From Minisyncoccota bacterium (lineage in GTDB: Bacteria > Patescibacteriota > Minisyncoccia > Phycocordibacterales > JABAAK01), in the NCBI GenBank assembly GCA_958295675.1, contig OY282360.1, positions 358,394-422,393 on the forward strand: 64,000 nucleotides of DNA, given 5' to 3'. Positions 25,081 through 45,407 of the stretch are shown here, one piece after another (the stretch's first letter is position 1; every line of letters starts with the position of its first letter). Both the position numbers and the translations under genes were made by a program. The notes below the pieces were generated by a model. It was not told the DNA's origin, did not search any database, and was given only the letters and a program-made list of their open reading frames with translations.

Positions 25081-26232
25081 TCATAGGAAATATTTTGAGT
25101 ATTGTTCCGGGTGTTGGGCGATAAGCGCGGTGCCGCGGGCGACGACGGTGGTCGGATTATTCGGGACCAATATTTTTAAATTCAGCGCTGCCTCAATTTT
25201 TTCGGAAAAAGTATGAATGGACGGACCGCCGCCGACAAAATATATATTATTATTCTGCAAATCAGAAAGAACTTCAGGTGACACGCGCTCAATAAACGAA
25301 TTAATATGGCTGACCACGCTGTCCAGAGGATCAGAGATAAAATCAAGTACTTCGTCAAGAGTAACTTCAACCTCAAGCGGTAATCCGGTTGAAACATTTC
25401 TGCCCTGCACGCTGAATGTTTTTCGTTCTTCAACCGATTGCATAATCGCCATTTTAAGATCTTCAGCGGTACGCCTGCCGACCGCAAGCTGCATGCGTTC
25501 CTTCAGTCCGTTAATAATAGATTCATCAAACGCATCACCGGCGATTCGTATACTGTCATTAGCAACAATTTCCCCGCCGACCAGTATCATGGCATCGCTG
25601 GTGCCGCCGCCGACATCAACCACCATAATCGCTGTCTCTTCACTCAATGACAAGTCAAGACCGATTGCGGCTGCAAGAGGTTCATACACGATATGCACTC
25701 GCCGCGCGCCGGCATCAATAGTAGCATCCCGAACGGCGTTGATTTCTGTCTGAGAACTACAGCACGGCACGCCGACAATGACTGTCGGGCCAAGAATGCG
25801 CGGTGACGATGCTTGAACCTTGCGAAAAATATATTCAAATAACTGTTCGGTAACTTCATAGTCATACACTACCCCCCGCTGCATGGGCTGCACTACTGTG
25901 ATATGTTCGGGAGTGCGTCCGACCATCACACGCGCCTTTTTTCCGACCGCTACCACCTGTTCTGTTTTTTTGTTGACGGCAACCAATGTCGGTTCCCGCA
26001 ACACAACGCCTTTCCCTTCAACATACACAACTGTTGATGCGGTCCCGAGATCAATGCCGACTTGATTTGAAAAAAAATTACCGCTGCTTCGTGCGCGTTT
26101 TTTCTTTGATTTAAGTTGTCGTATTCGTTCCTTCAGCGCGGGTAATGCTGAATTGGCAACACGAGATAATCGACGCCACAGCGCTTTTATTAATTCTTTC
26201 CCCGGAATATATTTTCGCTTTTTATATGCCAT
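25081..26232 (-). CDS. mreB: rod shape-determining protein MreB
   Basis: VGIDLGTASTVVYV, VVDVGGGTSDAMIL and YFVGGGP actin-fold motifs. Start trimmed to MAYKKRKY (the track ORF extends 89 aa upstream into frr). Confidence 0.8.
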   Translation of the reverse strand: MAYKKRKYIPGKELIKALWRRLSRVANSALPALKERIRQLKSKKKRARSSGNFFSNQVGIDLGTASTVVYVEGKGVVLREPTLVAVNKKTEQVVAVGKKARVMVGRTPEHITVVQPMQRGVVYDYEVTEQLFEYIFRKVQASSPRILGPTVIVGVPCCSSQTEINAVRDATIDAGARRVHIVYEPLAAAIGLDLSLSEETAIMVVDVGGGTSDAMILVGGEIVANDSIRIAGDAFDESIINGLKERMQLAVGRRTAEDLKMAIMQSVEERKTFSVQGRNVSTGLPLEVEVTLDEVLDFISDPLDSVVSHINSFIERVSPEVLSDLQNNNIYFVGGGPSIHTFSEKIEAALNLKILVPNNPTTVVARGTALIAQHPEQYSKYFL

Positions 26233-26239
26233 ATATTCG

Positions 26240-26803
26240 CTATATCTGTATATCTTGCAGTTTAGTTTGGTGCATAGCATCAACTTCCCTGTTTGCTTCG
26301 TCAACCTTCTCCTGCAAATATTTTTTTGCGGAAAACTCCTCATCTTCAGAAAGATTAGATGCCGCTTTTGCATGTTTAATCTCAGCAATCTCCTTTTCTC
26401 TCGCATTGCGAATTGATTGTTTTGCTTCTTCCATCCGCTCCCGAGCAGCTCGTTCCAACAGCACTCTGCGCTCACCGGTAAGTTCCTGTGCTGTAACACG
26501 GATACCTGTATCGCCGACTGAAAGCGACATGGATGGCATTCGCTCCCGTAATTCTGATTCTATGGCTGGTAATAAAGATGTATCATACGGCGTTACCAAT
26601 AATACTTTCTGATCTTCTAGAGTGATAGTCGAGCAATGACTCAGTGCAGTTTTCGTACCATACGCTTCAATCGTTACTCTATCCAACAAAGATGGTGTGA
26701 TTTTGCCGGATTGTATACCGATATACTCTTTCCCGAGCCAATCAATAATTTCTTTGACTCTACCTGAAAAAGTACTGAAATCATACTGCATTACATGTAT
26801 CAT
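26240..26803 (-). CDS. frr: ribosome recycling factor
   Basis: 187 aa. LTGERRVLLERAARERMEEAK is the Frr signature. Confidence 0.85.
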   Translation of the reverse strand: MIHVMQYDFSTFSGRVKEIIDWLGKEYIGIQSGKITPSLLDRVTIEAYGTKTALSHCSTITLEDQKVLLVTPYDTSLLPAIESELRERMPSMSLSVGDTGIRVTAQELTGERRVLLERAARERMEEAKQSIRNAREKEIAEIKHAKAASNLSEDEEFSAKKYLQEKVDEANREVDAMHQTKLQDIQI

Positions 26804-26852
26804 AGCATACAGCGTTTTAAGGGTGAAATAGAGATTAAGGACAAAAAATCAA

Positions 26853-26875
26853 CCCCAAACACACAGTGTTTGGGG
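26853..26875. terminator. bidirectional hairpin terminator element, copy 1 of 13 (CCCCAAACAC-loop-GTGTTTGGGG; A-tract 5' and T-tract 3')
   Basis: Perfect 10-bp inverted repeat. Confidence 0.55.
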
Positions 26876-26911
26876 TTTTGTGGCTCCAGAACGGGAGTTG
26901 GGTGCGCTCTT

Positions 26912-27520
26912 TTATCTCAAGGGTTGTACTCTCGCGCGGATTGCTTCCGGCGTGTTCGGGTCTTCAAGAACACTCTTTCGAACTTCGTCGTCGCGACCGT
27001 TGCGTAGATCATTGATGAACTGATCAACATCTTCCGGCGGTATGTTCGGGTTTGCAAGAAGATTCCTTCGAACCTCATCATCGTAGAATAAGGCATTGAC
27101 AAGTAGAGCGAAAGCTTCTACCGGTGCTTCAGGATTTCCGGCAACACTCGCTCGCACATTCTCAAATGAATGATTGGCAAGTTTGATGAGAACCTCTTTC
27201 GGTGTTTCTTGGTTTCCAGCGACTTTTTCCTGCACACAAACATCATCATCCTCAGCGAGTTTGATGAGAACTTCTTTTGATGCTTTCCCATGCTCGGCAA
27301 CTCTCTCTCGCACCCGCTTATCTTCATCCTCAGCAAGTTCAGGGAGGATTTCCGTGAGGATTTCCGTCGGGATATCTTCACGACATGCGAGACCTGCTCG
27401 CACCTTCCAATCCGCATCCTTGGCAAGTTCAAAGAGGATTTCAATTTCCCTCGGGGTCATCGGGGCATCTTCATCCCTAGCAAGTTGTTTGAGTACCTCA
27501 TCTGGTATTTTCAGTACCAT
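26912..27520 (-). CDS. LRV-repeat protein
   Basis: 202 aa. ...DVCVQEKVAGNQETPKEVLIKLA...VRASVAGNPEAP. Confidence 0.65.
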   Translation of the reverse strand: MVLKIPDEVLKQLARDEDAPMTPREIEILFELAKDADWKVRAGLACREDIPTEILTEILPELAEDEDKRVRERVAEHGKASKEVLIKLAEDDDVCVQEKVAGNQETPKEVLIKLANHSFENVRASVAGNPEAPVEAFALLVNALFYDDEVRRNLLANPNIPPEDVDQFINDLRNGRDDEVRKSVLEDPNTPEAIRARVQPLR

Positions 27521-27556
27521 CTCTTTCCTCGGTTTTCAGTTGGTTTAGTCAACTAC

Positions 27557-27577
27557 GATGAGAGAAAAACTCTCATC
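27557..27577 (-). promoter_or_regulatory. conserved 5'-UTR stem-loop of minus-strand LRV genes (gatgagag-aaaaa-ctctcatc)
   Basis: Same element at 28281-28301. Lies between the promoter-like region (tatagtat) and the RBS. Confidence 0.35.
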
Positions 27578-27623
27578 ACCAAAATATAGTATAGCACATT
27601 AAACTATATTTTCAAAAAATAAA

Positions 27624-27646
27624 CCTCAAACACTATGTGTTTGGGG
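27624..27646. terminator. bidirectional hairpin terminator element, copy 2
   Basis: cctcaaacac-tat-gtgtttgggg. Confidence 0.5.
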
Positions 27647-27682
27647 CTTTATTGTTCTGGAACGAGAGTTGCGCACTCTCTT

Positions 27683-28234
27683 TTATCTCAAGGGTTGTAC
27701 TCTCGCGCGGATTGCTTCCGGCGTCTTCGGGTCTTCAAGAACATCCTTTCGCACTTCGTCGGCGTAACCGTTGCGCAGATCATCGACAAACTGATCAACA
27801 ACTTTTGGCGGTATGTTCGGGTTTGCAAGAAGATTCCTTCGAACATCCTCCCAGTAGAGTAAATCCATGGCAAGTAATTTGAAAGCTTCCGCTGGTGCCT
27901 TAGGATTTCCGGCAACACTCGCTCGCACATCGTCAAACAAATCCTGAGCAAGTTTGATGAGATCTTCCGGTGGTGTGTTTTCATTCCCACCGACTCTCGC
28001 TCGCACATTCTCATCCTCATCCGCAGCAAGTCTGGTCAGGGTTTCCGGCGGTGTGTTACCGTTGCCAGCAGCTTCTTTCCGAACACCCTTAAATGCATCA
28101 TTTGCCAGTTCAGCGAGAACTTCCAGCGGGGTATCTTCATCACCTGCGACACCTGCCCGCACAAGCGAATCCGCATCCTTGGCAAGTTGTCTAAGTACTA
28201 CAGGTGATGATTTCTCTGGTATTTCCATTGCCAT
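27683..28234 (-). CDS. LRV-repeat protein
   Basis: 183 aa. C-terminal 60 aa nearly identical to 26912..27520. Confidence 0.65.
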   Translation of the reverse strand: MAMEIPEKSSPVVLRQLAKDADSLVRAGVAGDEDTPLEVLAELANDAFKGVRKEAAGNGNTPPETLTRLAADEDENVRARVGGNENTPPEDLIKLAQDLFDDVRASVAGNPKAPAEAFKLLAMDLLYWEDVRRNLLANPNIPPKVVDQFVDDLRNGYADEVRKDVLEDPKTPEAIRARVQPLR

Positions 28235-28338
28235 CTCTTTCCTCGGTTTTCAGTTGGTTTAGTCAACTACGATGAGAGAAAAACTCTCATCACCAAAATA
28301 TAGTATAGCACATTAAACTATATTTTCAAAAAAATAAA

Positions 28339-28364
28339 CCCCTGAACACATAAGTGTTTTGGGG
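28339..28364. terminator. bidirectional hairpin terminator element, copy 3
   Basis: cccctgaacac-ataa-gtgttttgggg. Confidence 0.5.
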
Positions 28365-28382
28365 TTTAAGTGGTTCACGGAT

Positions 28383-29432
28383 TTACGCAAGCGAATCCGA
28401 TCGTCTGTTCCTGAGATGCAGCAGAGCAATGTGGCGCACAAACTCATTCTCATCTTTGACAAGTTTTTCGAGTACTTCAATCGGTGTGTTCGGATGTTGA
28501 GCGACAAGAGATCTGATCAGCAAATCCGCATTGCCGGCAAACAATGTAAGTTGTTCTGCCGGTGTATTCGGGTTACAAATGGCAGAACGCAATACCAATT
28601 CATCTGTATCTTTGAGAAGGAATGTCAGAGATTCTAGTGGAATGTTCTCGTTTTCAGCAAGCAGTTTTCGCACAAACCAACTTTTATCTACAGAAAGTAA
28701 TGCGAATGCTCTCGTCAAAGTAATCTTACTTCTAGCTATTTCTGCCCGCACATCCTCATCAGGATCTGTAGCAAAACCTGTGAGTGCTTTTATTAACCGT
28801 TTCTTTCTCTTGGCAAGAGTCAACCGCACAGAATCAGCCTTATCCTTGGCGAGTCGCATGAATACTGGGATCGGCAGCTTCTTTCTCTTGGCAAGAGTAA
28901 ACCGTACATGGACATCTTCGTCTTCAGTGAGACGCATGAGTATTTGGATTGGCAGCTTCTTTCTCTTGGCAAGAATACACCGTACATACCAATCCTCATC
29001 CTCAGCAAGTCGCATGAGTACTTGGATCGGCAGCTTCTTTTTCTCGGCAAGAATACGCCGTACATGTACATACCAATCCCCACTCTCAGCAAGTCGCATG
29101 AGTACTTGGATCGGCAGCTTCTTTCTCTCGGCAAGAATACACCGTACATACCAATCCTCATCCTCAGCAAGTCGCATGAGTACTTGGATCGGCAGCTTCT
29201 TTCTCTTGAGAATAGCACGCTGTACATAAAAATTCTCATCCTCAGCAAGTCGCATGAGTACTTCTTCCGGCAGATCCTCTCTCTCGGCAACAATATACCG
29301 TACATGCCAATTCTCATCCTCAGCAAGTCGAGCAAGTGTTTCTTGCGAAGATGTTATTTTGGCAAGAATATATCGCGGAAGAGTAGTAAGTATACCCAGA
29401 ACCCACAAACAGATTTCTTGGAATACATTCAT
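28383..29432 (-). CDS. LRV-repeat protein with N-terminal hydrophobic segment
   Basis: 349 aa. Seven or more LPIQVLMRLAEDEDWYVRCILAERKK repeats (26 aa). Confidence 0.6.
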   Translation of the reverse strand: MNVFQEICLWVLGILTTLPRYILAKITSSQETLARLAEDENWHVRYIVAEREDLPEEVLMRLAEDENFYVQRAILKRKKLPIQVLMRLAEDEDWYVRCILAERKKLPIQVLMRLAESGDWYVHVRRILAEKKKLPIQVLMRLAEDEDWYVRCILAKRKKLPIQILMRLTEDEDVHVRFTLAKRKKLPIPVFMRLAKDKADSVRLTLAKRKKRLIKALTGFATDPDEDVRAEIARSKITLTRAFALLSVDKSWFVRKLLAENENIPLESLTFLLKDTDELVLRSAICNPNTPAEQLTLFAGNADLLIRSLVAQHPNTPIEVLEKLVKDENEFVRHIALLHLRNRRSDSLA

Positions 29433-29641
29433 CCGAGTACCTCCTTCTTCGGTTCCTTTAGGATCAAAGACCCATCCTGATTCATAGTATTATATTTTAA
29501 GTGTATTGTCAATAAATAACTGAATATACTGATAGTATATTTTGTTTACAAATGGCAGAACGCAACACCACTTCAATGATCCAATTTCACTTGCCAATCT
29601 TCATCCTTCACAATGGTGTAATATATTTTCTAAAAAATGAA

Positions 29642-29664
29642 CCCCGAACATATAGTGTTCGGGG
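29642..29664. terminator. bidirectional hairpin terminator element, copy 4
   Basis: ccccgaaca-tata-gtgttcgggg. Confidence 0.5.
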
Positions 29665-29733
29665 TTTAGCGGAAACGCCGGTGAGTTCAGGTACGAATCA
29701 GGGTTTGCCTTTTATCAAGCAAGAACTGCACTT

Positions 29734-32103
29734 TTAGGAAACCGTCTGTCTTTTGAGATTCTCAACAGCCGTCTCTCGCACCCACGGATTCTTATCCTCC
29801 GCAAGCTTGGCAAGAACTTCTTTCGGTGTGTTCCGATGCTTGGCAACAGCCAACCGAATCCGCCAATACGCATCCTCAGCAAGTCGCACGAGTACTTCTA
29901 TGAGAACTTCCCTCGGTGTGTTCCGATGTTTGGTAACACTAAACCGCACCCACGCATTCTCATCCTCGGCAAGCTTGGTGAGAGCTTCTTTCGGTGTGTT
30001 CCGATGTTTGGTAACACTCAACCGCACCCACGCATTCTCATCCTCAGCAAGCTTGGTAAGAGCTTCTTTCGGTGTGTTCGGATGCTCGGCAACTTCCTGC
30101 CGCACCCACGCATTCTCATCCTCGGCAAGCTTGGTGAGAACTTCTTTCGGTGTGTTCCGCTGCTTAGCAACTTCCCGCCGCACCCACGGATTCTTATCCT
30201 CGGCAAGCATTTTAAGCACTTCCAAAGGTGTGTTTGGATTCATGGCGACACCTATTCGCACACCTGCATTCTCATCCTCGGCAAGCTTGGCAAGAATTTC
30301 TTTCGGTGTGTTCCGATGCTTAGCAACTTCCTGCCGCACCAACACATTTTCATCCTCAGCAAGTCGCATGAGTGCTTCTTCCGGTAAGTCCTTCCTCTTG
30401 GCAAGAGTCAACCGCACATCCAGATTTTTATTATCAGTAAGATGAATGAGATCTTCTTTCGGTGTGTCCCGATGTTTAGCAAAAGCCAACCAAACCCGCC
30501 AATTCTTATCCTCAGTAAGTCGCACGAGTGCTTCTTCCGGCAAGTCCTTCCTCTTGATAAGAGTAAGCTGCACATCCAGATTCTTATCCTCGGCAAGCTT
30601 GGTGAGAGCTTCTTTCGGTGTGTTCGGATGCTCGGCAACTTCCCGCCGAACCCGCCAATCCTTATCCTCAGCAAGTCGCACGAGTACTTCTTCCGGCAAG
30701 TCCTTCCTCTTGGGAAGAGTAAGCTGCACATCCAGATTCTTATCCTCGGCAAGTTTGATGAGAGCTTCTTTCGGTGTGTTCCGATGCTTAGCAACTTCCT
30801 GCCGCACCAACGCATTCTCATCCTCGGCAAGCTTGGTGAGAACTTCTTTTGATGCTTTCTTATACTTGGCAACAGCAAACCGAACCCGCCAATTCTTATC
30901 CTCAGCAAGTCGCACGAGTACTTCTTCCGGCAAGTCCTTCCTCTTGGGAAGAGTCAACCGCACATCCAGATTCTTATCCTCGGCAAGTTTGATGAGAGCT
31001 TCTTTCGGTGTGTTCCGATGATTAGCAACTTCCTGCCGCACCAACGCATTCTCATCCTCGGCAAGCTTGGTGAGAGCTTCTTTCGGTGTGTTCCGATGCT
31101 TGGCAACAGCCAACTGAATCCGCCAATCCTTATCCTCAGCAAGTCGCATGAGTGCTTCTTCCGGCAAGTCCTTCCTCTCGGTAAGAGTCAACCGCACATC
31201 CAGATTTTTATTACCAGTAAGATGAACGAGAGATTCTTTCGGTGTGTTCCGATGCTTGGCAACAGCCAACCGAACCCGCCAATTCTTATCCTTAGCAAGT
31301 CGCATGAGTGCTTCTTCCAGTAAGTCCTTCCTCCTGGTAAGAGCAAGCCGCACATCCAGATTTTTATCATCAGTAAAATGAACGAGAACTTTTCTCGGTG
31401 TGTTCCGATGCTTAGCAACTTCCTGCCGAACCCGCCAATCCTTATCCTCAGCAAGTCGCACGAGTACTTCTTCCGGCAAGTCCTTCCTCTTGGCAAGAGT
31501 CAACCGCACATTCTGTTTCTTATCCCCGGCAAGTTTGATGAGAGCTTCTTTCGGTGTGTTCGGATGCTCGGCAACTTCCCGCCGCCGCAGCCAATCCTTA
31601 TCTCCGGCAAGTTGCATGAGTACTTCTCTGAGAATTTCCCTCGGTGTGTTTCGATGTTTGGTAACACTCAACCGCACCCACGAATCCTTATCCCCGGCAA
31701 GTTTGATGAGAACTTCTCTCGGCGTGTTCCGATTCTTGGCAACTTCCCGCCGCACGGACCGATTCTTATCCTCGGCAAGTTTGATGAGAATTTCTCTCGG
31801 TGTGTTCCGATGCTCGGCAACAACCGACCGAACCGACCAATTCTCATCCTCAGCAAGTTTGATGAGAACTTCTTTTGGTGCGTTCCTATGCCTGGCAATT
31901 CTATCTCGCACAAACCAAAACGCATCTTCAGCAAGTCGCACGAGTACTTCTTCCGGCAGATCCTTTCTCTCGGCAAGAGTCAACCGCACCAGAAAATCCT
32001 TATCCCCGGCAAGTCGCATGAGTTTTTCATGAGATGTACAAGGGTCCTTGGCGGCTTTCAATCGTGCCACCACATTTCTCTTTCTCCTGCTCTTTCTACT
32101 CAT
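29734..32103 (-). CDS. giant LRV-repeat protein (~27 repeats)
   Basis: 789 aa of LAEDKNWRVRQEVAKHRNTPKEALIK-type 26-aa units. K/R-rich N-terminus. Confidence 0.65.
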   Translation of the reverse strand: MSRKSRRKRNVVARLKAAKDPCTSHEKLMRLAGDKDFLVRLTLAERKDLPEEVLVRLAEDAFWFVRDRIARHRNAPKEVLIKLAEDENWSVRSVVAEHRNTPREILIKLAEDKNRSVRREVAKNRNTPREVLIKLAGDKDSWVRLSVTKHRNTPREILREVLMQLAGDKDWLRRREVAEHPNTPKEALIKLAGDKKQNVRLTLAKRKDLPEEVLVRLAEDKDWRVRQEVAKHRNTPRKVLVHFTDDKNLDVRLALTRRKDLLEEALMRLAKDKNWRVRLAVAKHRNTPKESLVHLTGNKNLDVRLTLTERKDLPEEALMRLAEDKDWRIQLAVAKHRNTPKEALTKLAEDENALVRQEVANHRNTPKEALIKLAEDKNLDVRLTLPKRKDLPEEVLVRLAEDKNWRVRFAVAKYKKASKEVLTKLAEDENALVRQEVAKHRNTPKEALIKLAEDKNLDVQLTLPKRKDLPEEVLVRLAEDKDWRVRREVAEHPNTPKEALTKLAEDKNLDVQLTLIKRKDLPEEALVRLTEDKNWRVWLAFAKHRDTPKEDLIHLTDNKNLDVRLTLAKRKDLPEEALMRLAEDENVLVRQEVAKHRNTPKEILAKLAEDENAGVRIGVAMNPNTPLEVLKMLAEDKNPWVRREVAKQRNTPKEVLTKLAEDENAWVRQEVAEHPNTPKEALTKLAEDENAWVRLSVTKHRNTPKEALTKLAEDENAWVRFSVTKHRNTPREVLIEVLVRLAEDAYWRIRLAVAKHRNTPKEVLAKLAEDKNPWVRETAVENLKRQTVS

Positions 32104-32246
32104 GTATAATCCTCCCTTGGTTCAGTTTCTTCAGATAAGAGGCATTCTCTCATCACCGAGAATAGTATACTATGTTTTCTAAAAAAATAAACCTTAAAAA
32201 GATTATATAAAAAAATTCCACCAGCATTTCTACTAGTGGAGTGAGT

Positions 32247-32963
32247 TTAGAGCACTTCCGTAAAGAACCGTCTTTCAAACCAAGAAAGGATAGCCTGCAC
32301 CACTTGATCTCGTTCCAATGTACCGTCCAGGAATGCTTTTACAACTTTTATGAAAGCCAGAAACCAGAAATCCATTTCTACATCTTCGTTGGAAAGTAGG
32401 TCAGATGCTCCAATCTCTAGTTCTTGGACACTTGAGTAGACAGCTTGCCACGAATCTTTTGCATCTTCTTCAAATGTTTTAAGCATGGCAAGCCGTGCTT
32501 TGGTAAAATTCACTTCAAACTCAAGAAACATCACTCTAAGAGTAGAGGCAGAAATGCTCCTTTCTTTTTCGTAGTATTTTACAATTTCAAGAAGAAGTAT
32601 TAGTTCCTTCGGTATGTTTGAGTTTCTGTAGAGAAATTCAAGCACAATGGAGGACACCTTTTTCTCGTCTTTGGCAAGTTGCATCAGAATTTCAAAAGAT
32701 GCTTTTGGATTCTTGCCGACATTTCTTCGCACATACCAGTGCGTGTCTCCAGCGAGTTGCGTAAGAGATTTCACCGGCATGCTTGGGTGCTCAGCGGCAG
32801 CTGCCCGCACCCGCCAATCCTTGTCTCTGGCAAGCCGTACGAGAGATGCTACTGGTGTATCCGGATTCCTGGCTGCACGGCGTTGCACACGCCAATCATC
32901 GTCTTTTGCATACGCAATGAGCATTTTTTCCGGAACAGGTTCTCGCCGCGCAAAAACAAGCAT
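32247..32963 (-). CDS. LRV-repeat protein with unique C-terminal domain
   Basis: 238 aa: four LRV units then about 130 aa of non-repeat helical sequence. Confidence 0.6.
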   Translation of the reverse strand: MLVFARREPVPEKMLIAYAKDDDWRVQRRAARNPDTPVASLVRLARDKDWRVRAAAAEHPSMPVKSLTQLAGDTHWYVRRNVGKNPKASFEILMQLAKDEKKVSSIVLEFLYRNSNIPKELILLLEIVKYYEKERSISASTLRVMFLEFEVNFTKARLAMLKTFEEDAKDSWQAVYSSVQELEIGASDLLSNEDVEMDFWFLAFIKVVKAFLDGTLERDQVVQAILSWFERRFFTEVL

Positions 32964-33040
32964 TCAATACCTCCTTTTAGGTTTGTTTAGCATGAGACAA
33001 AATCTCCAAAGTAAGTATACCACTTTAGGATACATTTTTC

Positions 33041-33063
33041 AAAAAACAAACCCCAAACACATA
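33041..33063. terminator. bidirectional hairpin terminator element, copy 5
   Basis: ccccaaacac-ata-gtgtttgagg. Confidence 0.45.
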
Positions 33064-33083
33064 GTGTTTGAGGTTCTGATGAC

Positions 33084-33618
33084 TCAGGAAGAAGTCGATG
33101 ATGTATTCAGTTCTGCTCGTGCAGTAAGTCCTGTCCGCACAACCAAATTCTCATCCTCAGCAAGCAGCGTGGCTACCTCAGTCGGCAAAGTCATTTCTCC
33201 TGGCAAGAGCGGACCGTACCCGCCGATCCTTATCCTTAGCAAGCCGCATGGCTGCCTCAGTCGGCAAGTCATCTCTCCTGGCAAGAGCGGACCGTACCCG
33301 CCGATTCTTATCCTCAGCAAGCCACATGGCTACATTAGCCGGCAGGTCATCTCTCATGGCAAGAGAACGCCGAACAGACGCTTTTGCATCCTCAGCAAGC
33401 CGCATGGCTACTTCAGCAGGCAACTGCTTTCTCTTAGTAAGAAGAAGCCGTACACGCACCCCTCCATTCTCTGCAAGACGAACAAGTCTTTTTGATGAAG
33501 ATGATCTTACGGCAAGAATCTGCCACACAAGATCAAGCATCATTTTTCGGAACACATGCATGACCCAAATACCTCCTTTTAGGTTTGTTTGGAATGAGAG
33601 AAAACCTCTAAATAACAA
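33084..33618 (-). pseudogene. LRV-repeat gene split by a frameshift
   Basis: ORF 33178..33618 (LRV units) and ORF 33084..33320 (continuing ...LPTEVATLLAEDENLVVR) are in different frames. Confidence 0.45.
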
Positions 33619-33648
33619 TATACAATAATATATTCAGGTTTACAAGTT

Positions 33649-34293
33649 TCAAATAAAAGCAAGGATGTGGAGAGTGCCTTTGTGCAGTGCACCATGATAT
33701 ATCGCATCTCGTAAACTCTCTGCCACTTTCCTGCATTGTATTAAAGAATCATCCTTTGTATCTGTGGTGTCTGCAATACGATTATGCACATATTTTTCAA
33801 GATTCTGCAGCATGTGAAGGATTGTGACATGGCGTGTATTTTCTCCTTCTTCCCATATATCATCAATTATCTTCAGTCGATCTTTTGGAGATGCGTTAAT
33901 AAATTCCTTGAAGTCAGAAGATAATTTTGTGATATCCGTTTCTGTTATGTCGGTGATATAGCAGCGGGAAAGCAGGGTGTCCAGTACTTCTGTTCCGACA
34001 GGAAGACAAATAAAAAAATAGACACCTTTTTGAACATCCTCAACAATTTTTAAAAGAGCGTTTTGCGCCTGATGCGTGATGCCCGACGCGCTGATCACGA
34101 CTCTTCTGGTATCGTGACCGACTGATTGAAAGGCATAATCATGAAGCCAACGAATATCCTCAACACCGATTCTTTTTTCAGACCTAATGACATACAAATT
34201 ATCTTTTTCTCGTGATGTAATGTGTTCCGGTAAATCAGCGAAAATCAGGTATGCATGATGTTGCGGCTGATTGATAATCTTTTCAAAACCCAT
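33649..34293 (-). CDS. DNA polymerase III delta-prime-like clamp-loader subunit (degenerate, no P-loop)
   Basis: HAYLIF in place of a Walker A, ...AQNALLKIVE..., SRC motif. Confidence 0.4.
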   Translation of the reverse strand: MGFEKIINQPQHHAYLIFADLPEHITSREKDNLYVIRSEKRIGVEDIRWLHDYAFQSVGHDTRRVVISASGITHQAQNALLKIVEDVQKGVYFFICLPVGTEVLDTLLSRCYITDITETDITKLSSDFKEFINASPKDRLKIIDDIWEEGENTRHVTILHMLQNLEKYVHNRIADTTDTKDDSLIQCRKVAESLRDAIYHGALHKGTLHILAFI

Positions 34294-34313
34294 ACACTAT
34301 CATAATACCTCTT

Positions 34314-34949
34314 TTATTGTTCCGGTGCGCAGCGATTCACTACTTTAGCAATGGCGGCAAGTAAGTGATGCACATCATTTTCATCTTCAAGAGTGGTGCC
34401 GTATCGTGCCTGCAATTCCGTATTGATAGACATGCGCACTTCCGAAAGCGCAATTTCCTGCTCCTCATCACTCACATTTTGTAGAATCATTCTTTCTGTA
34501 AGATATTTTTCAACTAGTGTAGCATAGAGCGAGTCCACGGTAAGTAACATATCTCCATATTCCGGTAACGGGCATCCGGCAAGATGTGCAAGGACTTCCG
34601 GGCTTACCATACCACCGCATCGCATACTGTCAGGAAACTTCCATGTCGGGTATCCGGTTATTTGCTCGTCCTGACACACCTGCGTCTGTTCAGTACGATC
34701 GGGAGTTGAGCATTCCACATACAATAGTTTTTTACTTGCGGAAGAACCGAATGCCGTTTTTTGCTGCGCGCATACCGGACACCAAAATGCGCCGTAAAAG
34801 GTCACGCCGCGATCTTTCAGACACTGCGCCAATGCAGTGTATGCTTCTCGTTTCGGTGCATCAGCGCGGTCAAGAAACCACAAGCCGAAAATAATGGTAA
34901 CAATTAAAACAACTAAACCAACGGTATATACAACAATATGCCTTTCCAT
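34314..34949 (-). CDS. membrane-anchored thioredoxin-fold thiol-disulfide oxidoreductase (CPVC)
   Basis: N-terminal TM, then FYGAFWCPVCAQQK, which resembles the Trx-like domain associated with VKOR/DsbA-type proteins. Confidence 0.6.
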   Translation of the reverse strand: MERHIVVYTVGLVVLIVTIIFGLWFLDRADAPKREAYTALAQCLKDRGVTFYGAFWCPVCAQQKTAFGSSASKKLLYVECSTPDRTEQTQVCQDEQITGYPTWKFPDSMRCGGMVSPEVLAHLAGCPLPEYGDMLLTVDSLYATLVEKYLTERMILQNVSDEEQEIALSEVRMSINTELQARYGTTLEDENDVHHLLAAIAKVVNRCAPEQ

Positions 34950-34978
34950 AGAATTATGAAATATAATATAGCATGGTG

Positions 34979-36004
34979 TCAGCGGGCAAGCAATGTCTGT
35001 CTGTGAAAATTAAGATGCTCGGTCTGAATACTTTTACCGATACCGCGGATAACAGCGTGCTCGGGATGATCAGCAACTTGTACCGGTGCGTTTATATGTT
35101 TCTCAACCGCGCGATCAAGACCGTTAAGATTTGCTACGCCACCGGTCAAAATGACACCTTTTTCAAGTATGTCAGAAGTGAGTTCCGGTCGCGTTCCCTG
35201 GAATACGCTCGCGATAGTATCTAATATTTTTCTGACTTCTTCCTGTATTGCTTCAGCAACATCATTTGAATTAATATGTATAATACGCGGAAGATTATTG
35301 TTCATGTCACTTCCCTTTACCTTGATTCCTTTCGGAGTATCTGATACAGCCACTGTGCCTATTTTTTCTTTTACCTGTCTGGCGACATTTTCACTGATGA
35401 GTAAGTGGTAACGCTGTTGAATATGCCGGACAATTGATGTGTCCATATCATTGCCTCCCACTCTTTCAGAACGATAACTGCTCATACCGCCAAGGGAAAT
35501 AACCGCGGTTTCAGTTAATCCCGCACCGATATCCGTCACCATTCTGCCGCGCAATTCATCGCGGTGCATACCGACCCCGAATGCCGCAAGGATAGCATTC
35601 TGTTCGGTGAACACAGAACGCGCACCTGTTCGCTTACATGTTTGGATGGCAGCGCGCTGCTCCATACTGGTCGCACCGGTCGGTACACTGATGAGAATAT
35701 CGCTCCGAAAGAATCGCAGTATACCTTGCGCCTGTCGGATAGCGCTGTGTAAATATTTTTCGGCTATATGTTCATCCTGAATCGCACCGCGGGAAACGGT
35801 TGTATGGATATTAATATGATTCGGCGCGCGACCGACCATTTCTTCCGCGCATTCTCCGACACAAATAAGACGTTTTTTGCCGTCGCCTTCAAAGGCCAAT
35901 TTGCTTGGTTCGTCAAAGATAACGCCGCGGTATGGGATATAGATACGGGTCTGTGATGTACCCAAATCTATTCCAACATTACGGGAAAACGAAAAAAAAG
36001 ACAT
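34979..36004 (-). CDS. second MreB/Mbl-like actin homologue
   Basis: VGIDLGTSQT, DIGAGLTETAVISLGG, Hsp70/actin-fold phosphate motifs. Confidence 0.7.
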   Translation of the reverse strand: MSFFSFSRNVGIDLGTSQTRIYIPYRGVIFDEPSKLAFEGDGKKRLICVGECAEEMVGRAPNHINIHTTVSRGAIQDEHIAEKYLHSAIRQAQGILRFFRSDILISVPTGATSMEQRAAIQTCKRTGARSVFTEQNAILAAFGVGMHRDELRGRMVTDIGAGLTETAVISLGGMSSYRSERVGGNDMDTSIVRHIQQRYHLLISENVARQVKEKIGTVAVSDTPKGIKVKGSDMNNNLPRIIHINSNDVAEAIQEEVRKILDTIASVFQGTRPELTSDILEKGVILTGGVANLNGLDRAVEKHINAPVQVADHPEHAVIRGIGKSIQTEHLNFHRQTLLAR

Positions 36005-36061
36005 AAGGAGAGTATACCACAGAGCTTTTTTTGCCTGTAACTACAATGTTATATTGAATAT

Positions 36062-36337
36062 ATGGGCTCTTTAGATCAAGAGATAGACAGTTTTTTAAAG
36101 AATAAGAAAAATCCGACATCTCAACGGGCGCACCTCATTCAACAGGTGTGTGATACTCTTTTTGATGATACTCATTTCAAGAAGATATTGGGACAAACGC
36201 ACCAATTCACAGTTGCAGAAATACAGGAAATCTTTGAAGAAGCAAAAAATTGGGAAATAAATCCACAGGCACTTTTTTGGAAGTTGGTTCGGGAGAAACA
36301 GAGTGAGATACGCAAACAAATCACAGATTCAGCGTGA
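36062..36337 (+). CDS. small hypothetical helical protein
   Basis: 91 aa, no motifs. Confidence 0.3.
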   Translation: MGSLDQEIDSFLKNKKNPTSQRAHLIQQVCDTLFDDTHFKKILGQTHQFTVAEIQEIFEEAKNWEINPQALFWKLVREKQSEIRKQITDSA

Positions 36338-36345
36338 TATATATT

Positions 36346-36582
36346 CTACGCATTCATTTTTGAGGTCAGATATGCGATAATATCGTCGCTTTCATACATG
36401 GAGGTATCATTCTCGCTGTCAATAAGAAACGGTACCTGCTGCTTGCCGCCTTTAGCAATCAATGCATCAGCGTGTTCCTGATCCATAATATCTTTTAAAT
36501 CAACCGTGATATTATTTTCTTTAATGAATGCAAGAACTTTTTGGCAAAACGGGCAGGTTGATTTGTAGTACAGTGTATACAT
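36346..36582 (-). CDS. glutaredoxin (CPFC active site)
   Basis: 78 aa. YKSTCPFCQKV...GGKQQVPFLIDS. Confidence 0.75.
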   Translation of the reverse strand: MYTLYYKSTCPFCQKVLAFIKENNITVDLKDIMDQEHADALIAKGGKQQVPFLIDSENDTSMYESDDIIAYLTSKMNA

Positions 36583-36673
36583 GGTGAGATATAGGTGAAC
36601 TCAATAATAATACTTTAAGTATACCATAAAAACTTTCCAAAATAACACTCTAGTTTATGCTATACTCAATATA

Positions 36674-36745
36674 TCACTATATTCCGCGGTAGCTCAGCGG
36701 TAGAGCAACCGGCTGTTAACCGGTAGGTCGCAGGTTCGAATCCCG
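36674..36745 (+). tRNA. tRNA-Asn (anticodon GUU)
   Basis: Acceptor tccgcgg/ccgcgga, anticodon loop cuGUUaa, T-loop ttcgaat. Confidence 0.8.
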
Positions 36746-36851
36746 CCCGCGGAGCAATAACACAGATTTCACATTTTTTCAAAAAATGGTATATTATTTG
36801 TTAGAAAGGTTTCCTTTTCTGTTCATTTCAAACACACCAAAAGGAGGTTTT

Positions 36852-37139
36852 ATGAACCTACACCCACCACCGAAAATGGTTGGAATGCTGATACCACAAA
36901 ACCGTATGCTTCGGCTTTGGGAGAAGTTGAAGCAGTGTGCTGTGACGACCTTTCATCTCATCACACTCCGTAGGTGGATGCGGCCCGACGTTTACGTTGC
37001 TCGCAACTACAGCATACCACCGGAAGTGCTTGCACAACTGGCAAGGGATCCGGATGCGGTTACTCGGCAGATAGTTGCTCACCGCACCGTACCACCAGAA
37101 GTCCTTGCAAGATTGACGGACGATAAGGTTTCTCCCTGA
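36852..37139 (+). CDS. short LRV-type protein carrying the shared N-terminal module (MLRLWEKLKQ...ITLRR)
   Basis: ATG after AAGGAGG. Two IPPEVLAQLARDPDAVTRQIVAHRTVPPEVL units. Ends ...LTDDKVSP. Confidence 0.55.
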   Translation: MNLHPPPKMVGMLIPQNRMLRLWEKLKQCAVTTFHLITLRRWMRPDVYVARNYSIPPEVLAQLARDPDAVTRQIVAHRTVPPEVLARLTDDKVSP

Positions 37140-37149
37140 GTCGTCAGAA

Positions 37150-37172
37150 CCCCAAACACACAGTGTTTGGGG
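37150..37172. terminator. bidirectional hairpin terminator element, copy 6
   Basis: ccccaaacac-aca-gtgtttgggg plus T-tract. Confidence 0.55.
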
Positions 37173-37276
37173 TTTATTTTTTAAATAACTTAAAAATTAT
37201 AGTTAAAAGATGTATACTTGGGTGGGAGAAAATCCCTAACCACCCCTAACCGAGTCGAAATGAAGGAGGTCCGATA

Positions 37277-37777
37277 ATGGGCATAGCCCTGCTAGAAAAT
37301 TTGTTGCAGAAGCAAGTTTTCAAAGAAATAGACTCAAACGCAACATCAGTTGAAGTGCTTGCATCATTGGTGTCACTGACATTAGATGAGTTCATTGCGA
37401 CCAGAGACCCGAACACATCGAAAAAGACGCTTGCACGACTTGCAAACAGTGACAATCTGCTCGTTCAGATACTTGTTGCCAAACATCCGAACACATCACC
37501 AGAAACTCTCAAGCAGTTTGTTGAGATGGTGAAACAGGGCAAACAGTTTGGAACTGAAATTCAGTTTCTTCTGCAAATACCTCTCATCCAAAATCAAAAT
37601 ACGCCTTCGGAAGCACTCGCGTTTTTTGCCGAGAGTGAGAACGAGGATGTACGGTGTGCCGTTGCCAGAAATCCGAACACACCGCCGGAAGTTCTCCTCA
37701 AACTTAAGGAGGATAGGAGTTTACTCGTGCAGCAGTATGCCGAAGAGAACCCAAACACACCGTTGACTTCTCCCTGA
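37277..37777 (+). CDS. LRV-repeat protein
   Basis: 166 aa. GAAGGAGG RBS. ...DVRCAVARNPNTPPEVLLKL.... Confidence 0.65.
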   Translation: MGIALLENLLQKQVFKEIDSNATSVEVLASLVSLTLDEFIATRDPNTSKKTLARLANSDNLLVQILVAKHPNTSPETLKQFVEMVKQGKQFGTEIQFLLQIPLIQNQNTPSEALAFFAESENEDVRCAVARNPNTPPEVLLKLKEDRSLLVQQYAEENPNTPLTSP

Positions 37778-37786
37778 GTCGTCAGA

Positions 37787-37809
37787 ACCCCAAACACACA
37801 GTGTTCGGG
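37787..37809. terminator. bidirectional hairpin terminator element, copy 7
   Basis: ccccaaacacacagtgttcgggg. Confidence 0.55.
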
Positions 37810-37827
37810 GTTTATTTTTTAAATAAC

Positions 37828-37855
37828 TTGAAAATTATAGTTTAAATGGTATCTT
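37828..37855 (+). promoter_or_regulatory. cassette promoter TTGAAA / 16 nt / TGgTATCTT (representative; repeated before each family-A gene)
   Basis: Same sequence near 38160, 39090, 40100, 42780 and 43980. Confidence 0.4.
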
Positions 37856-37862
37856 GTTTGTT

Positions 37863-37880
37863 AGAAAGGTTTCCCTTTCT
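37863..37880 (+). promoter_or_regulatory. conserved 5'-UTR stem-loop agaaagg-tttc-cctttct (representative)
   Basis: Present in every family-A leader and in the leader of 36852..37139. Confidence 0.4.
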
Positions 37881-37913
37881 GTTCGTTTCAAACACACCAA
37901 AAGGAGGTGTTTT

Positions 37914-38090
37914 GTGAATCAAAAGATGTACCGGATCCGTGAGAAGATACAGCACACTGATGATGATTTAGATCTCAGCAACCTCACCTCCGCGAAAGGA
38001 CTCACCTTGCCGAGGAAGATTGGTGGTGATCTGGTTCTCAGCGGTCTCAGAATACCACCGGAAGAAGTCTTTAAGTCCTTGCAAGATTGA
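37914..38090 (+). CDS. family-A mini-gene (single 22-aa repeat)
   Basis: GTG after AGGAGG. VNQKMYRIREKIQHTDDDLDLSNLTSAKGLTLPRKIGGDLVLSGLRIPPEEVFKSLQD. Confidence 0.45.
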   Translation: MNQKMYRIREKIQHTDDDLDLSNLTSAKGLTLPRKIGGDLVLSGLRIPPEEVFKSLQD

Positions 38091-38123
38091 TGGACGATAA
38101 GGTTTCTCCCTGAGTCGTCAGAA

Positions 38124-38146
38124 CCCCAAACATATAGTGTTTGGGG
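38124..38146. terminator. bidirectional hairpin terminator element, copy 8
   Basis: ccccaaacatatagtgtttgggg. Confidence 0.5.
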
Positions 38147-38251
38147 TTTGTTTTTAAACAATTTGAAAACATAGTTAAAAAAAATGGTATATTATTTGTT
38201 GGAAAGATTCCCCTTTCTGTTTATTTCAAACACACCAAAAGGAGGTGTTTT

Positions 38252-38968
38252 GTGGATCCACACATGTCTCGGCTCCGTAGGAATATACAGCACGTTGATG
38301 ATAATTTAGATCTCAGCAATCTCACCTCCGCGAAAGGACTCACGCTACCTGAAGAGATTGTTGGTGATCTGAATCTCAGCGGTCTTGTCTCCGCTGAGGG
38401 ACTCACCCTGCCGAGGAAGATTGGTGGTGATCTGCGGCTCAACGGTCTCACCTCCGCTGAAGGACTCACGCTACCTGAAGAGATTGGTGGTCATCTGGAT
38501 CTCAGAGATCTCACCTCCGCGAAAGGACTCACGCTACCTGAAGAGATTGGTGGCAGTCTGGTTCTCAGCGGTCTCACCTCCGCTGAGGGACTCACCCTGC
38601 CGAGGAAAATTGGTGGTGGTCTGTTTCTCAGCGGTCTCAAGTCCGCGAAAGGACTCACGCTACCTGAAGAGATTGGTGGTGATCTGTGGCTCATCGGTCT
38701 CACCTCCGCGAAAGGACTCACGCTACCTGAAGAGATTAGTGGCAGTCTGTGGCTCGACAATCTCACCTCCGCGAAAGGACTCACGCTACCTGAAGAGATT
38801 AGTGGCAGTCTGTGGCTCGACAATCTCACCTCCGCGAAAGGACTCACCCTGCCGAGGAAAATTGGTGGCATTTTGTTTCTCAGCGGACTCACCTCCGCTG
38901 AGGGACTTACACTCCCTGAAGAGATTGGTGGTTATCTGTGGATCGGAGGAAGGAAGGTACAGCATTAG
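38252..38968 (+). CDS. family-A 22-aa tandem-repeat protein (about 10 repeats)
   Basis: GTG after AGGAGG. VDPHMSRLRRNIQHVDDNLDLSNL then LTSAKGLTLPEEIGGxLxLxGL units. Confidence 0.65.
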   Translation: MDPHMSRLRRNIQHVDDNLDLSNLTSAKGLTLPEEIVGDLNLSGLVSAEGLTLPRKIGGDLRLNGLTSAEGLTLPEEIGGHLDLRDLTSAKGLTLPEEIGGSLVLSGLTSAEGLTLPRKIGGGLFLSGLKSAKGLTLPEEIGGDLWLIGLTSAKGLTLPEEISGSLWLDNLTSAKGLTLPEEISGSLWLDNLTSAKGLTLPRKIGGILFLSGLTSAEGLTLPEEIGGYLWIGGRKVQH

Positions 38969-39042
38969 TGTTGCTATAAGCAACCCACCACCGGAAGTCC
39001 TTGCAACATTGATGGACGATAAGGTTTCTCCCTGAATCGTCA

Positions 39043-39065
39043 GAACCCCGAACATTATGTGTTCG
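39043..39065. terminator. bidirectional hairpin terminator element, copy 9
   Basis: ccccgaacattatgtgttcgggg. Confidence 0.5.
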
Positions 39066-39171
39066 GGGTTTATTTTTTAAATAACTTGAAAATTATAGTT
39101 TAAATGGTATCTTGTTTGTTAGAAAGGTTTCCCTTTCTGTTCGTTTCAAACACACCAAAAGGAGGTGTTTT

Positions 39172-40095
39172 GTGAATCAAACTGGCTCCGTGATGCAACA
39201 CACTGATGATTTAGATCTCAGCAACCTCACCTCCGCGAAAGGACTTACACTCCCTGAAGAGATTACTGGCACTCTGGATCTCAGCGGTCTCACCTCCGCT
39301 GAGGAACTCACGCTACCTGAAGAGATTGGTGGTAATCTGGATCTCAGAGGTCTCACCTCCGCTGAGGGACTCACCCTGCCGAGGAAGATTGGTGGTGCTC
39401 TGTTGCTCGACGGTCTCACCTCCGCGAAAGGACTCACGCTACCTGAAGAGATTGGTGGTGATCTGTGGCTCATCGGTCTCACCTCCGCGAAAGGACTCAC
39501 GCTACCTGAAGAGATTGGTGGTCATCTGGTTCTCAACGGTCTCACCTCCGCGAAAGGACTCACCCTGCCGAGGAAAATTGGTGGCATTTTGTTTCTCATC
39601 GGTCTCACTTTCGCTGAAGAACTCACCCTGCCGAGGAAGATTAGCGGTAGTCTGTATCTCAACGGTCTCACCTCCGCTAAGGGACTTACGCTACCTGAAG
39701 AGATTGGTGGTCATCTGATTCTCAGCGGTCTCACTTCCGCGAAAGGACTCACCCTACCGAGGAAGATTGGTGGTGCTCTGGTTCTCAGCGGTCTCACCTC
39801 CACTGAAGGACTCACCCTGCCGAAGAAGATTGGTGGTGATCTGGATCTCAACGGTCTCAAGTCCGCTGAAGAACTCACACTACCTGAAGAGATTGGTGGC
39901 AGTCTGTTTCTCGACGGTCTCAGTTCCGCTGAGGGACTCACGCTACCTGAAGAGATTGGTGGCATTCTGGTTCTCAACGGTCTCACCTCCACGAAAGGAC
40001 TCACCCTGCCGAGGAAGATTGGTGGTCATCTGGATCTCAGAGGTCAGAACCCCGAACATTATGTGTTCGGGGTTTATTTTTTTAAACAACTTTAA
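39172..40095 (+). CDS. family-A 22-aa tandem-repeat protein (about 13 repeats); 3' tail deleted, ORF reads through the terminator hairpin
   Basis: GTG after AGGAGG. The repeat is fused directly to tcagaaccccgaaca...; ends FGVYFFKQL. Confidence 0.55.
   Translation: MNQTGSVMQHTDDLDLSNLTSAKGLTLPEEITGTLDLSGLTSAEELTLPEEIGGNLDLRGLTSAEGLTLPRKIGGALLLDGLTSAKGLTLPEEIGGDLWLIGLTSAKGLTLPEEIGGHLVLNGLTSAKGLTLPRKIGGILFLIGLTFAEELTLPRKISGSLYLNGLTSAKGLTLPEEIGGHLILSGLTSAKGLTLPRKIGGALVLSGLTSTEGLTLPKKIGGDLDLNGLKSAEELTLPEEIGGSLFLDGLSSAEGLTLPEEIGGILVLNGLTSTKGLTLPRKIGGHLDLRGQNPEHYVFGVYFFKQL
40047..40069. terminator. bidirectional hairpin terminator element, copy 10
   Basis: ccccgaacattatgtgttcgggg. Confidence 0.5.
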
Positions 40096-40179
40096 AATTA
40101 TAGTTAAAAATGGTACCTTGTTTGGTAGGAAAGGATTTCCCTTTCTGTTCATTTCAAACACACCAAAAGGAGGTGTTTT

Positions 40180-42579: not shown

Positions 42580-42739
42580 TGGTAGTCTGTTTCTCAGCGG
42601 TCTCACTTCCGCGAAAGGACTCACCCTACCTGAAGAGATTGGTGGTGATTTGGTTCTCAGCGGTCTCACCATACCACCGGAAATCCTTAAGTCCTTGCAA
42701 GATTGATGGACGATAAGGTTTCTCCCTGAGTCGTCAGAA

Positions 42740-42762
42740 CTCCGAACACATAGTGTTCGGGG
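42740..42762. terminator. bidirectional hairpin terminator element, copy 11
   Basis: ctccgaacacatagtgttcgggg. Confidence 0.5.
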
Positions 42763-42863
42763 TTTATTTTTAAATAACTTGAAAATATAGTTAAAAAATA
42801 GTACATTGTTTGTTAGAAGGGTTTCCCTTTTTGTTCACTTCAAACACACCAAAAGGAGATTTT

Positions 42864-43904: not shown

Positions 43905-43937
43905 TGGACGATAAGGTTTCTCCCTGAGTCGTCAGAA

Positions 43938-43960
43938 CCCCAAACATATAGTGTTTGGGG
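43938..43960. terminator. bidirectional hairpin terminator element, copy 12
   Basis: ccccaaacatatagtgtttgggg. Confidence 0.5.
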
Positions 43961-44065
43961 TTTGTTTTTAAACAATTTGAAAACATAGTTAAAAAAAATG
44001 GTATATTATTTGTTGGAAAGATTCCCCTTTCTGTTTATTTCAAACACACCAAAAGGAGGTGTTTT

Positions 44066-45265: not shown

Positions 45266-45331
45266 TGCTCAAAAATCGCATCTTCCGCGTAAGATTGACG
45301 GACGATAAGGTTTCTTCCTGAGTCGTCAGAA

Positions 45332-45354: not shown

Positions 45355-45407
45355 TTTATTTTTAAACAACTCTATATTTTCAAAGAGGCCGCTTCTTTTG
45401 CATTGTG

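Follow-up and report, generated by a model that had tools for sequence, protein, structure and literature searches.

Although the leucine-rich repeat variant (LRV) family is widespread, our literature searches turned up no study on the function of LRV proteins in bacteria, and nothing pertinent came from those on the repeat proteins of Patescibacteria or Kaiserbacteria. The LRV protein of Azotobacter vinelandii (1LRV) is built of 8 units of 24 amino acids (aa), each an alpha and a 3-10 helix, which stack as a superhelix with no beta-strands, and it carries a 4Fe-4S domain. In Nostoc, Calothrix and Anabaena, cyanobacterial proteins of 1100-1400 aa named 'leucine rich repeat variant' present tens of units and match the Pfam families LRV, LRV_2, HEAT and DUF2336. 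HEAT-like scaffolds such as the PP2A A subunit and alphaRep have an alpha-solenoid architecture with units of 31-40 aa and longer helices. AlphaRep proteins bind their targets via variable positions on a fixed framework, and this is the working model that we propose for an array of LRV genes located in a 64-kb stretch of contig OY282360.1 (hereafter the window, meaning the whole stretch of DNA analysed). The genome, of about 0.72 Mb, belongs to a Kaiserbacteria-like member of the Patescibacteria (Candidate Phyla Radiation, CPR). The array, which is specific to this lineage, consists of eight tandem genes: six lie in 26912-33618 (g1 to g6) and two nearby (LRV7 and LRV8). They are additional members, from a Patescibacteria genome, of a repeat family that is already known but functionally uncharacterised. 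We infer, with a probability of roughly 60%, that their products are soluble alpha-solenoid binding scaffolds combining a conserved core with a variable exposed stripe and diversified by duplication of units, blocks and genes.

The original prediction described six tandem LRV genes, one of them coding for a 789-aa protein, and we indeed found six consecutive open reading frames (ORFs) on the minus strand between 26912 and 33618. The gene set was nevertheless incomplete, since LRV7 and LRV8 are located on the plus strand outside the flagged range. When the Pfam LRV profile (PF01816; cut-off, 21.6 bits) was run, LRV was the top family for g1-g5, above HEAT, HEAT_2, LRV_2 and DUF2336. Specifically, the scores were 63 bits for g1 (26912-27520, 202 aa), 78.7 bits for g2 (27683-28234, 183 aa), 129 bits for g3 (28383-29432, 349 aa, about 12 units), 386 bits (E 1.4e-120) for g4 (29734-32103, 789 aa) and 55 bits for g5 (32247-32963, 238 aa). 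On the plus strand, LRV7 (36852-37139, 95 aa, two LRV units) reached 38.4 bits and LRV8 (37277-37777, 166 aa) 50.8 bits, with 42.4 bits for LRV_2. The HEAT (PF02985) and HEAT_2 (PF13646) profiles passed their cut-offs for g3 and g4 but remained 2-3 times below the LRV score (135 bits for HEAT in g4), and the HEAT matches in the LRV genes contained zero individually significant stretches. As LRV was clearly the best family in Pfam, the outcome of a generic HEAT/ARM assignment only was not seen, and the relation of these genes to HEAT, as far as profile scores can tell, is at the clan level only.

Comparison with 1LRV supported the same assignment. The array proteins share its signature (...D.D..VR..VA......P.E.L..LA.), and 1lrv_A was the best solved-structure sequence match of g2 (E 7.4e-5, residues 9-122 versus 73-179), in an alignment with a 2-residue gap per unit because the units are 26 aa long here and 24 aa long in 1LRV. 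The extra residues lie in the 'N-x-N-T-P' turn. The same search did not recover 1LRV with g4 alone at E <= 1e-3, its only matches being designed HEAT-like alphaRep proteins (E 3.9e-12). The array also differs from 1LRV in that g4 contains 28 units instead of 8 and mixes two unit types, and in that no Cys-rich N-terminal domain is visible in the array proteins. In agreement, Fe-S domain families were absent from the Pfam matches of all LRV genes at E <= 0.01 and their translations showed no Cys cluster. Other collections added little: the PADLOC defence models gave zero matches for seven LRV proteins (g1-g5, the g6 fragment and LRV8) and one protein of the second repeat family described below, NCBIfam returned only a far-sub-threshold 'SpbR' similarity, and PHROGs gave one match, to phrog_20647, a family of unknown function.

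The architecture of g4 is highly regular. It comprises 28 units of 26 aa (78 nucleotides, nt), although two units reach 30 aa (90 nt), and a partial terminal unit. Type A units end in '...VAKHRNTPKEALxK' (HRNTPKE) and type B units in '...LTLxKRKDLPEEALxR' (RKDLPEE), and they follow each other in the order BAAAAABABABAABAABABABAAAAAAA; the g3 units are mostly of a 'RKKLPIQVLMR' flavour. An AlphaFold2 model of g4 based on 35 homologues (predicted local distance difference test, pLDDT, 95.3) was a continuous solenoid with no strands, to which the units contribute two helices each (59 in all, 7-9 residues long), 3-10 and alpha helices being counted together in the output. Helix 1 spans unit positions 7-15, and helix 2 spans positions 21-26 together with positions 1-2 of the next unit. 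According to the model, each 26-aa unit would form two short helices, and the units would stack as one continuous rod or superhelix. A Foldseek search of the model against the PDB matched only alpha-solenoids (the PP2A A subunit on top, CAND1 and karyopherin-beta2) with TM-scores of 0.1-0.25, and 1LRV was missing among the 50 top-ranked matches. Such low scores indicate that the superhelix geometry differs from that of HEAT-like solenoids. The modelled structural class is thus clear, an alpha-solenoid, and no specific functional analogue emerges from it.

Position-wise analysis of the g4 units separated a framework from a variable set. The framework consists of L1, D4, V9, R10, V13, A14, N18-T19-P20, E22 and L24. 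At position 24 (Leu), the proportion of synonymous differences (pS) was 0.34 and that of non-synonymous differences (pN) 0.00; at position 2 (Ala) these values were 0.52 and 0.05, and L1 and D4 were invariant among the type A units. In contrast, positions 7, 8, 11, 12, 23 and 25 showed a pN of 0.45-0.56, equal to or higher than pS. The framework residues are therefore held by purifying selection, whereas positions 7, 8, 11 and 12 in helix 1 and 23 and 25 in helix 2 vary freely. Since positions 7, 8, 11 and 12 are spaced i, i+1, i+4 and i+5, they should fall on one face of helix 1, opposite V9, R10, V13 and A14. From this periodicity and the secondary structure of the model, the variable positions should be on the exposed face of the units. 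The pooled dN/dS of the units was 0.70-0.77. In the youngest unit pairs most changes were non-synonymous, for example 0 synonymous versus 5 non-synonymous, or 1 versus 7, and these counts are near the neutral expectation given about 18 synonymous and 60 non-synonymous sites. Altogether, the unit data are consistent with a scaffold that is fixed and a surface that is free or diversifying, relaxed and positive selection being inseparable here. If the proposed scaffold function is correct, the variable stripe and the unit number would determine what is bound.

Most units are older than was initially thought. The original prediction had described their DNA as almost identical, which proved to be overstated: g4 yields 378 unit pairs, and their median identity was 0.69, with only 8 pairs at or above 0.90 and a maximum of 0.987, and the longest exact internal repeat was 69 nt. 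Self-comparison of g4 for ungapped near-identical blocks of at least 100 nt detected only three. The most recent internal duplication (30646-31075, minus strand) is a block of 196 nt at 97.4% (30880-31075 versus 30646-30841) whose copies are three units apart; the other two measure 136 nt (95.6%, seven units apart) and 133 nt (94.7%, two units apart). The units at aa 347/373 and 425/451 of g4 are 96-99% identical. Similarly, Tandem Repeats Finder reported 66% matches at period 78, and 80% matches at the same period for 28801-29330 in g3. The synonymous-divergence check that had been suggested along with the prediction gave pooled synonymous differences per site of 0.29 among type A and 0.18 among type B units, showing that near-identity is not general and, consequently, that most units are old copies. 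From the sequence, then, a few multi-unit block duplications in g4 appear recent and most of its units appear old.

Regarding how the family grew, the mean unit identity was 0.69 within g4 and 0.62 within g6, compared to 0.42-0.60 between genes, and the nearest neighbour of a unit was found in its own gene for 27 out of 28 units in g4, 7 out of 12 in g3 and 4 out of 5 in g6. As units are more alike within than between genes, each gene must have expanded, or been homogenised, separately. Expansion by internal duplication is supported by these nearest neighbours and by the few 2-3-unit blocks at 95-97%. The earlier reading of near-identical units as a sign of recent expansion or ongoing gene conversion, however, holds for no more than a small portion of g4. 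At the level of whole genes, g1 is a recent paralogue of g2 (62% aa identity, a whole-gene duplicate), and their DNA forms a mosaic in which the 119 nt upstream are 97% identical, the central repeats 57-63% and the 3′ end 90-95%. The C-terminus ...LEDPxTPEAIRARVQPLR, which had been attributed to the paralogues in general, is present in only two of the six genes, g1 and g2. The family grew by duplication of single units and of blocks of 2-7 units within genes (block repeats in g4 occur at offsets of 2, 3 and 7 units), by duplication of a whole cassette (g1/g2) and by exchange at the conserved flanking modules.

Not all copies are intact. As predicted, g6 (33084-33618, minus strand), an LRV gene of five units, carries a +1 frameshift, which splits it into ORFs of 146 and 78 aa. 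At 33187-33189 it reads TTT ('GACTTTGCCG') where its sister units read TT ('GACTTGCCG'), and deletion of the extra T restores a 158-aa ORF from the ATG at 33561 to 33084, directly before the terminator hairpin. The LRV score rises with this repair from 20.3 bits for fragment a, slightly below the cut-off, to 33.6 bits; DUF2336 scores slightly above LRV for g6, yet under its own cut-off. The gene is either a pseudogene or an assembly indel. A decayed LRV unit (about 29535-29620, minus strand) also survives in the gap that separates the g3 promoter from the g4 terminator, with 'VKDEDWQVKL' and 'VVLRSAICKQN' preserved in two frames and 85% identity to 28562-28602 inside g3. The frameshifted gene together with this relic indicates birth and death of copies in the family. 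The long ORFs seen in other frames and on the opposite strand across the array are by-products of the repeats.

These remnants lead to the question of whether the array is largely non-adaptive, that is, made of duplication-prone repeats that drift in a small population with little selection to constrain them, with some repeat counts or the frameshift due to assembly or sequencing errors. The position of the g6 frameshift at a short homopolymer, the unit relic, a dN/dS of 0.70-0.77 that approaches 1 in the youngest pairs and the orphan C-terminal region of g5 would agree with it. This C-terminal region (143 aa, all-helical, 32250-32678, minus strand) follows three LRV units; its sole match among 1.84 billion representative proteins was g5 itself, and a single-sequence structure model of g5 was poor (pLDDT 50). 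We consider this explanation unlikely, however, since framework codons are under clear purifying selection (pN near 0 at a pS of 0.3-0.5), a 2370-nt open frame has been kept through about 28 repeats, the promoter, ribosome-binding-site and terminator motifs are intact, and the divergence of the units (median 69%, longest exact repeat 69 nt) makes a repeat collapse in the assembly improbable.

The flanking elements of the genes recur along the array. A terminator of the form (G)AACCCCRAACAY-nnnn-RTGTTYGGGGTT followed by a T run stands after the stop codon of each of the six genes but g5, which has a terminator hairpin of a different kind. In g1 it reads AACCCCAAACAC-TGT-GTGTTTGGGGTT and then a T run (26851-26877), and the others lie at 27614-27646 (g2), about 28336-28367 (g3), 29640-29666 (g4) and 33048-33076 (g6), all on the minus strand. 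On the 5′ side, the module upstream of g1 (27521-27619, minus strand) contains the promoter TTGAAA-16-TATACT with a TG, a hairpin in the 5′ untranslated region (5′-UTR) formed by GATGAGAG/CTCTCATC and a ribosome-binding site, and it is 97% identical to the module upstream of g2 (28235-28333). The module upstream of g5 (32964-33042, minus strand) consists of TTGAAA-17-TATACT, a UTR and an AAGGAGG site, and its 45-nt UTR and ribosome-binding part is 89% identical to the one before g6 (33568-33612). Promoter-like TTGAAA-16/17-TATACT sequences with an extended TG were thus present in g1, g2 and g5; g3 and g6 showed other sigma-70-like matches, and g4 a -10 box upstream but no classical -35 box. 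AGGAGG-type ribosome-binding sites follow the promoter or the stem-loop in the array genes. In most repeat genes, a 5′-UTR stem-loop comes right after the -10 box (27540-27590, 28255-28304, 32115-32160, 37225-37250, 37860-37885 and homologous sites), whereas g3 and g5 have a weak one or none. The stems differ by gene (GATGAGAG/CTCTCATC, AGAAAGG/CCTTTCT and GGGA/TCCC), whereas their position and pairing are kept, and they could act as mRNA-stabilising or regulatory hairpins. To judge from these predicted motifs, each gene would be its own transcription unit, or cassette.

Two mechanisms were considered and rejected. Phase variation was discarded because changes in the length of the T run, which overlaps the -35 box, would leave promoter spacing unaltered, and because the run at the frameshift has only 3 T. 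Antigenic variation from silent cassettes was discarded because each gene has its own upstream region resembling a promoter and a ribosome-binding site, most with a recognisable promoter.

Some observations weaken the case for binding scaffolds. The placement of the variable positions on an exposed face was deduced from periodicity and from the secondary structure of the model. The dN/dS of about 0.7-1 in the youngest pairs, based on small counts, is as compatible with relaxed constraint as with diversifying selection. Expression is predicted solely from motifs that match the consensus of promoters, ribosome-binding sites and terminators. We found no experimental or contextual clue to a ligand, and no conserved partner gene either, since the searches yielded no close relative of the genome for comparison. 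Finally, g6 is already broken, and at least part of the family may therefore be dispensable.

The LRV genes are not the only repeat genes of the region. A second multigene family of at least 12 genes, unrelated to the first, is located at 37914-45265 (plus strand), 51588-55666 (minus strand) and 59145-62564 (plus strand). It codes for acidic proteins with 23-24-aa repeats (LTSAKGLTLPEEIGGxLxLxGL), some with a conserved helical N-terminal domain of about 150 aa (MADICEELRKQL...) and a 'NEKEELEKRYPGQVxY' tail, and it is without a true Pfam model, the Thr_synth_N and Glutaredoxin2_C matches being spurious, low-complexity ones. By a rough sum of gene coordinates, both families together occupy about a third of the 64-kb window. 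The second-family genes at 37.9-45.3 kb on the plus strand are flanked by the same terminator hairpin as the LRV genes. Indeed, the conserved terminator, in the form (G)AACCCCRAACAY-nnnn-RTGTTYGGGGTTT plus a T run, was found at 13 sites in 26843-45363, after nearly every gene of both families. A search of the whole window found the pattern only beside repeat-protein genes, and it was absent from all six loci examined from other organisms. The promoter and UTR layout of the second family is near-identical for LRV7 and very similar for LRV8. Moreover, a comparison of 36760-37185 with 42772-43975 showed LRV7 to be a hybrid: it and the second-family gene at 42864-43904 had their promoter, UTR and first 45 or so codons in common (83% DNA identity; 56% aa identity over 45 aa, E 7e-11), as well as their last codons and terminator, with repeat cores of different kinds in between. 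Several second-family genes also close with an LRV-like half unit ('IPPEEVFKSLQD'): the one ending at 43904, its near-identical counterpart upstream of 38141 and the gene that ends near 42706, the last of these with one change. Common heads and tails around different cores indicate that the two families exchanged head and tail segments.

This raises the idea that both families constitute one recombination-driven cassette system, in which common promoter, 5′-UTR and terminator modules and head and tail segments would surround interchangeable solenoid cores of two unrelated folds, providing a diversifiable repertoire of binders directed toward the host, phage or surfaces. We regard this wider proposal as unlikely. 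The regulatory cassettes common to both families and the exchange of heads and tails are nevertheless the most interesting aspects of the locus, and they were absent from the original prediction, as were the two unit types and the second repeat family. As a gene-family expansion, the locus is well documented and rather ordinary. It provides a clean natural example of solenoid evolution, with a fixed framework, few variable positions, alternating unit types, block and cassette duplication and decay, and it can help to annotate Patescibacteria genomes and supply repeat frameworks, by itself offering no new mechanism.

Members of the Patescibacteria have been described as having reduced genomes and being likely symbionts of other bacteria (PMC12239599). 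Given this lifestyle, the array proteins could be exported or surface-presented host-interaction factors of an episymbiont, a diversifying repertoire like the repeat-protein effectors of other symbionts. With about a third of the 64-kb window devoted to repeat proteins, this genome of about 0.7 Mb invests heavily in them, which suggests that they are important for the symbiont lifestyle; the variable surface positions would suit such a role, and the head and tail modules common to the two families could be shared targeting signals. In contrast, inspection of the translations revealed no signal peptide or lipobox in any LRV gene, no membrane helix was predicted in them (the top 19-residue hydropathy window was 1.44), no secretion-system gene was present among the neighbours scanned, and no homology to known effectors was found. 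We therefore give the host-interaction role a low likelihood.

The charge of the array proteins divides them into a basic group (g3, g4 and g6, with isoelectric points, pI, of 9.3-11.5) and an acidic one (g1, g2 and LRV8, pI 4.6-4.9; 4.6 in g1). In terms of the binding scaffolds that we favour, they would represent a small repertoire of differently charged binders. The long basic members might instead be modular nucleic-acid-binding solenoids that read one or a few nucleotides per unit, like TALE, PUF, PPR or the DNA-binding HEAT-like ALK repeats, with positions 7, 8, 11 and 12 and the A and B types setting specificity; the net charge of g4 (+34, pI 9.8), its very basic N-terminus (MSRKSRRKRN), the pI of g6 (11.5) and g3 (9.3), the regular two-type unit order with few hypervariable positions on one helix face and a weak, sub-threshold match of g3 to Pfam DNA_alkylation (E 0.0031) point in that direction. 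This is very unlikely, because g1, g2 and LRV8 are strongly acidic, the Pfam, solved-structure sequence and Foldseek searches gave no significant similarity to any nucleic-acid-binding repeat family, the Foldseek TM-scores to all solved solenoids were low (0.1-0.25), and much of the positive charge lies at the framework residues R10, K15, R17, K21 and K26 and not at the variable positions.

Relatives of the array proteins were found elsewhere. The cyanobacterial LRV proteins align over 85-98% of g4, but with only 26-31% identity, and they come from unrelated phyla with large genomes; the array genes are shorter and each is a separate cassette. The closest repeats to those of g4 (42-57% identity) belong to LRV proteins of 460-620 aa on ENA metagenome contigs (P0102, P0033, P0104 and P0054), which share the 26-aa unit 'LAEDEDxxVRxxVAxNPNTPxEVLxK' and sometimes occur as two LRV genes side by side. 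Such metagenome relatives lie at 10001-12664 of locus L002, 780-2474 of L003 and 776-4158 of L007. Unlike the array proteins, they carry a conserved, unannotated N-terminal domain of about 280 aa that is unrelated to the array, and their genes are just upstream of a giant ORF of 3600-3700 aa without a Pfam match, amid small unannotated ORFs. As the similarity is confined to the repeat consensus, they are not orthologues of g4. The context of L002, with many small unannotated ORFs and one ParB_N gene, could be that of a phage or mobile element. Similarly, a word-indexed search of a 5.8-billion-protein collection found no full-length g4 orthologue, the best matches (26-57%) being confined to the repeats.

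The array lies among housekeeping genes of a Kaiserbacteria-like genome. The named DnaB matches at 47-75% identity were mostly from Candidatus Kaiserbacteria, Paceibacterota and Parcubacteria, and DnaB was 74-78% identical to proteins on contigs of 640-830 kb. The array is flanked on one side by frr, mreB, a putative mreC (without a Pfam match) and the PBP2 gene, and on the other by a holB-like gene, a thioredoxin-like gene and a second mreB, with CysS, DnaB and Mur ligases further off. In two relatives whose frr is 59-61% identical, the frr-mreB-mreC-PBP2 order was kept, with SET-domain and SMC-like genes upstream of frr and no LRV gene. Because it is missing at this locus in the relatives, the array sits at a synteny break and is lineage-specific. 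Scans of genome and metagenome contigs with frr gave only matches of 30-34% identity and no close relative.

Two MreB paralogues bracket the array, at 25081-26499 and 34979-36004 (both on the minus strand), the first of them within the frr-mreB-mreC-PBP2 block. The longest ORF of this first mreB (472 aa) overlaps frr and begins long before the MreB domain (residues 145-467), which makes an internal true start probable. Elsewhere in the window, two paralogous genes of about 290 aa on the plus strand (10001-10873 and 11063-11938) code for a hydrophobic, signal-peptide-like N-terminus (VKQLITTAVMAVLACVSMSA) and lie in a stretch whose GC content is raised (0.51-0.53). On the minus strand, two adjacent genes of the GH130 (mannooligosaccharide phosphorylase) family occupy 46608-49729, the first coding for 639 aa with its best match at residues 345-632.

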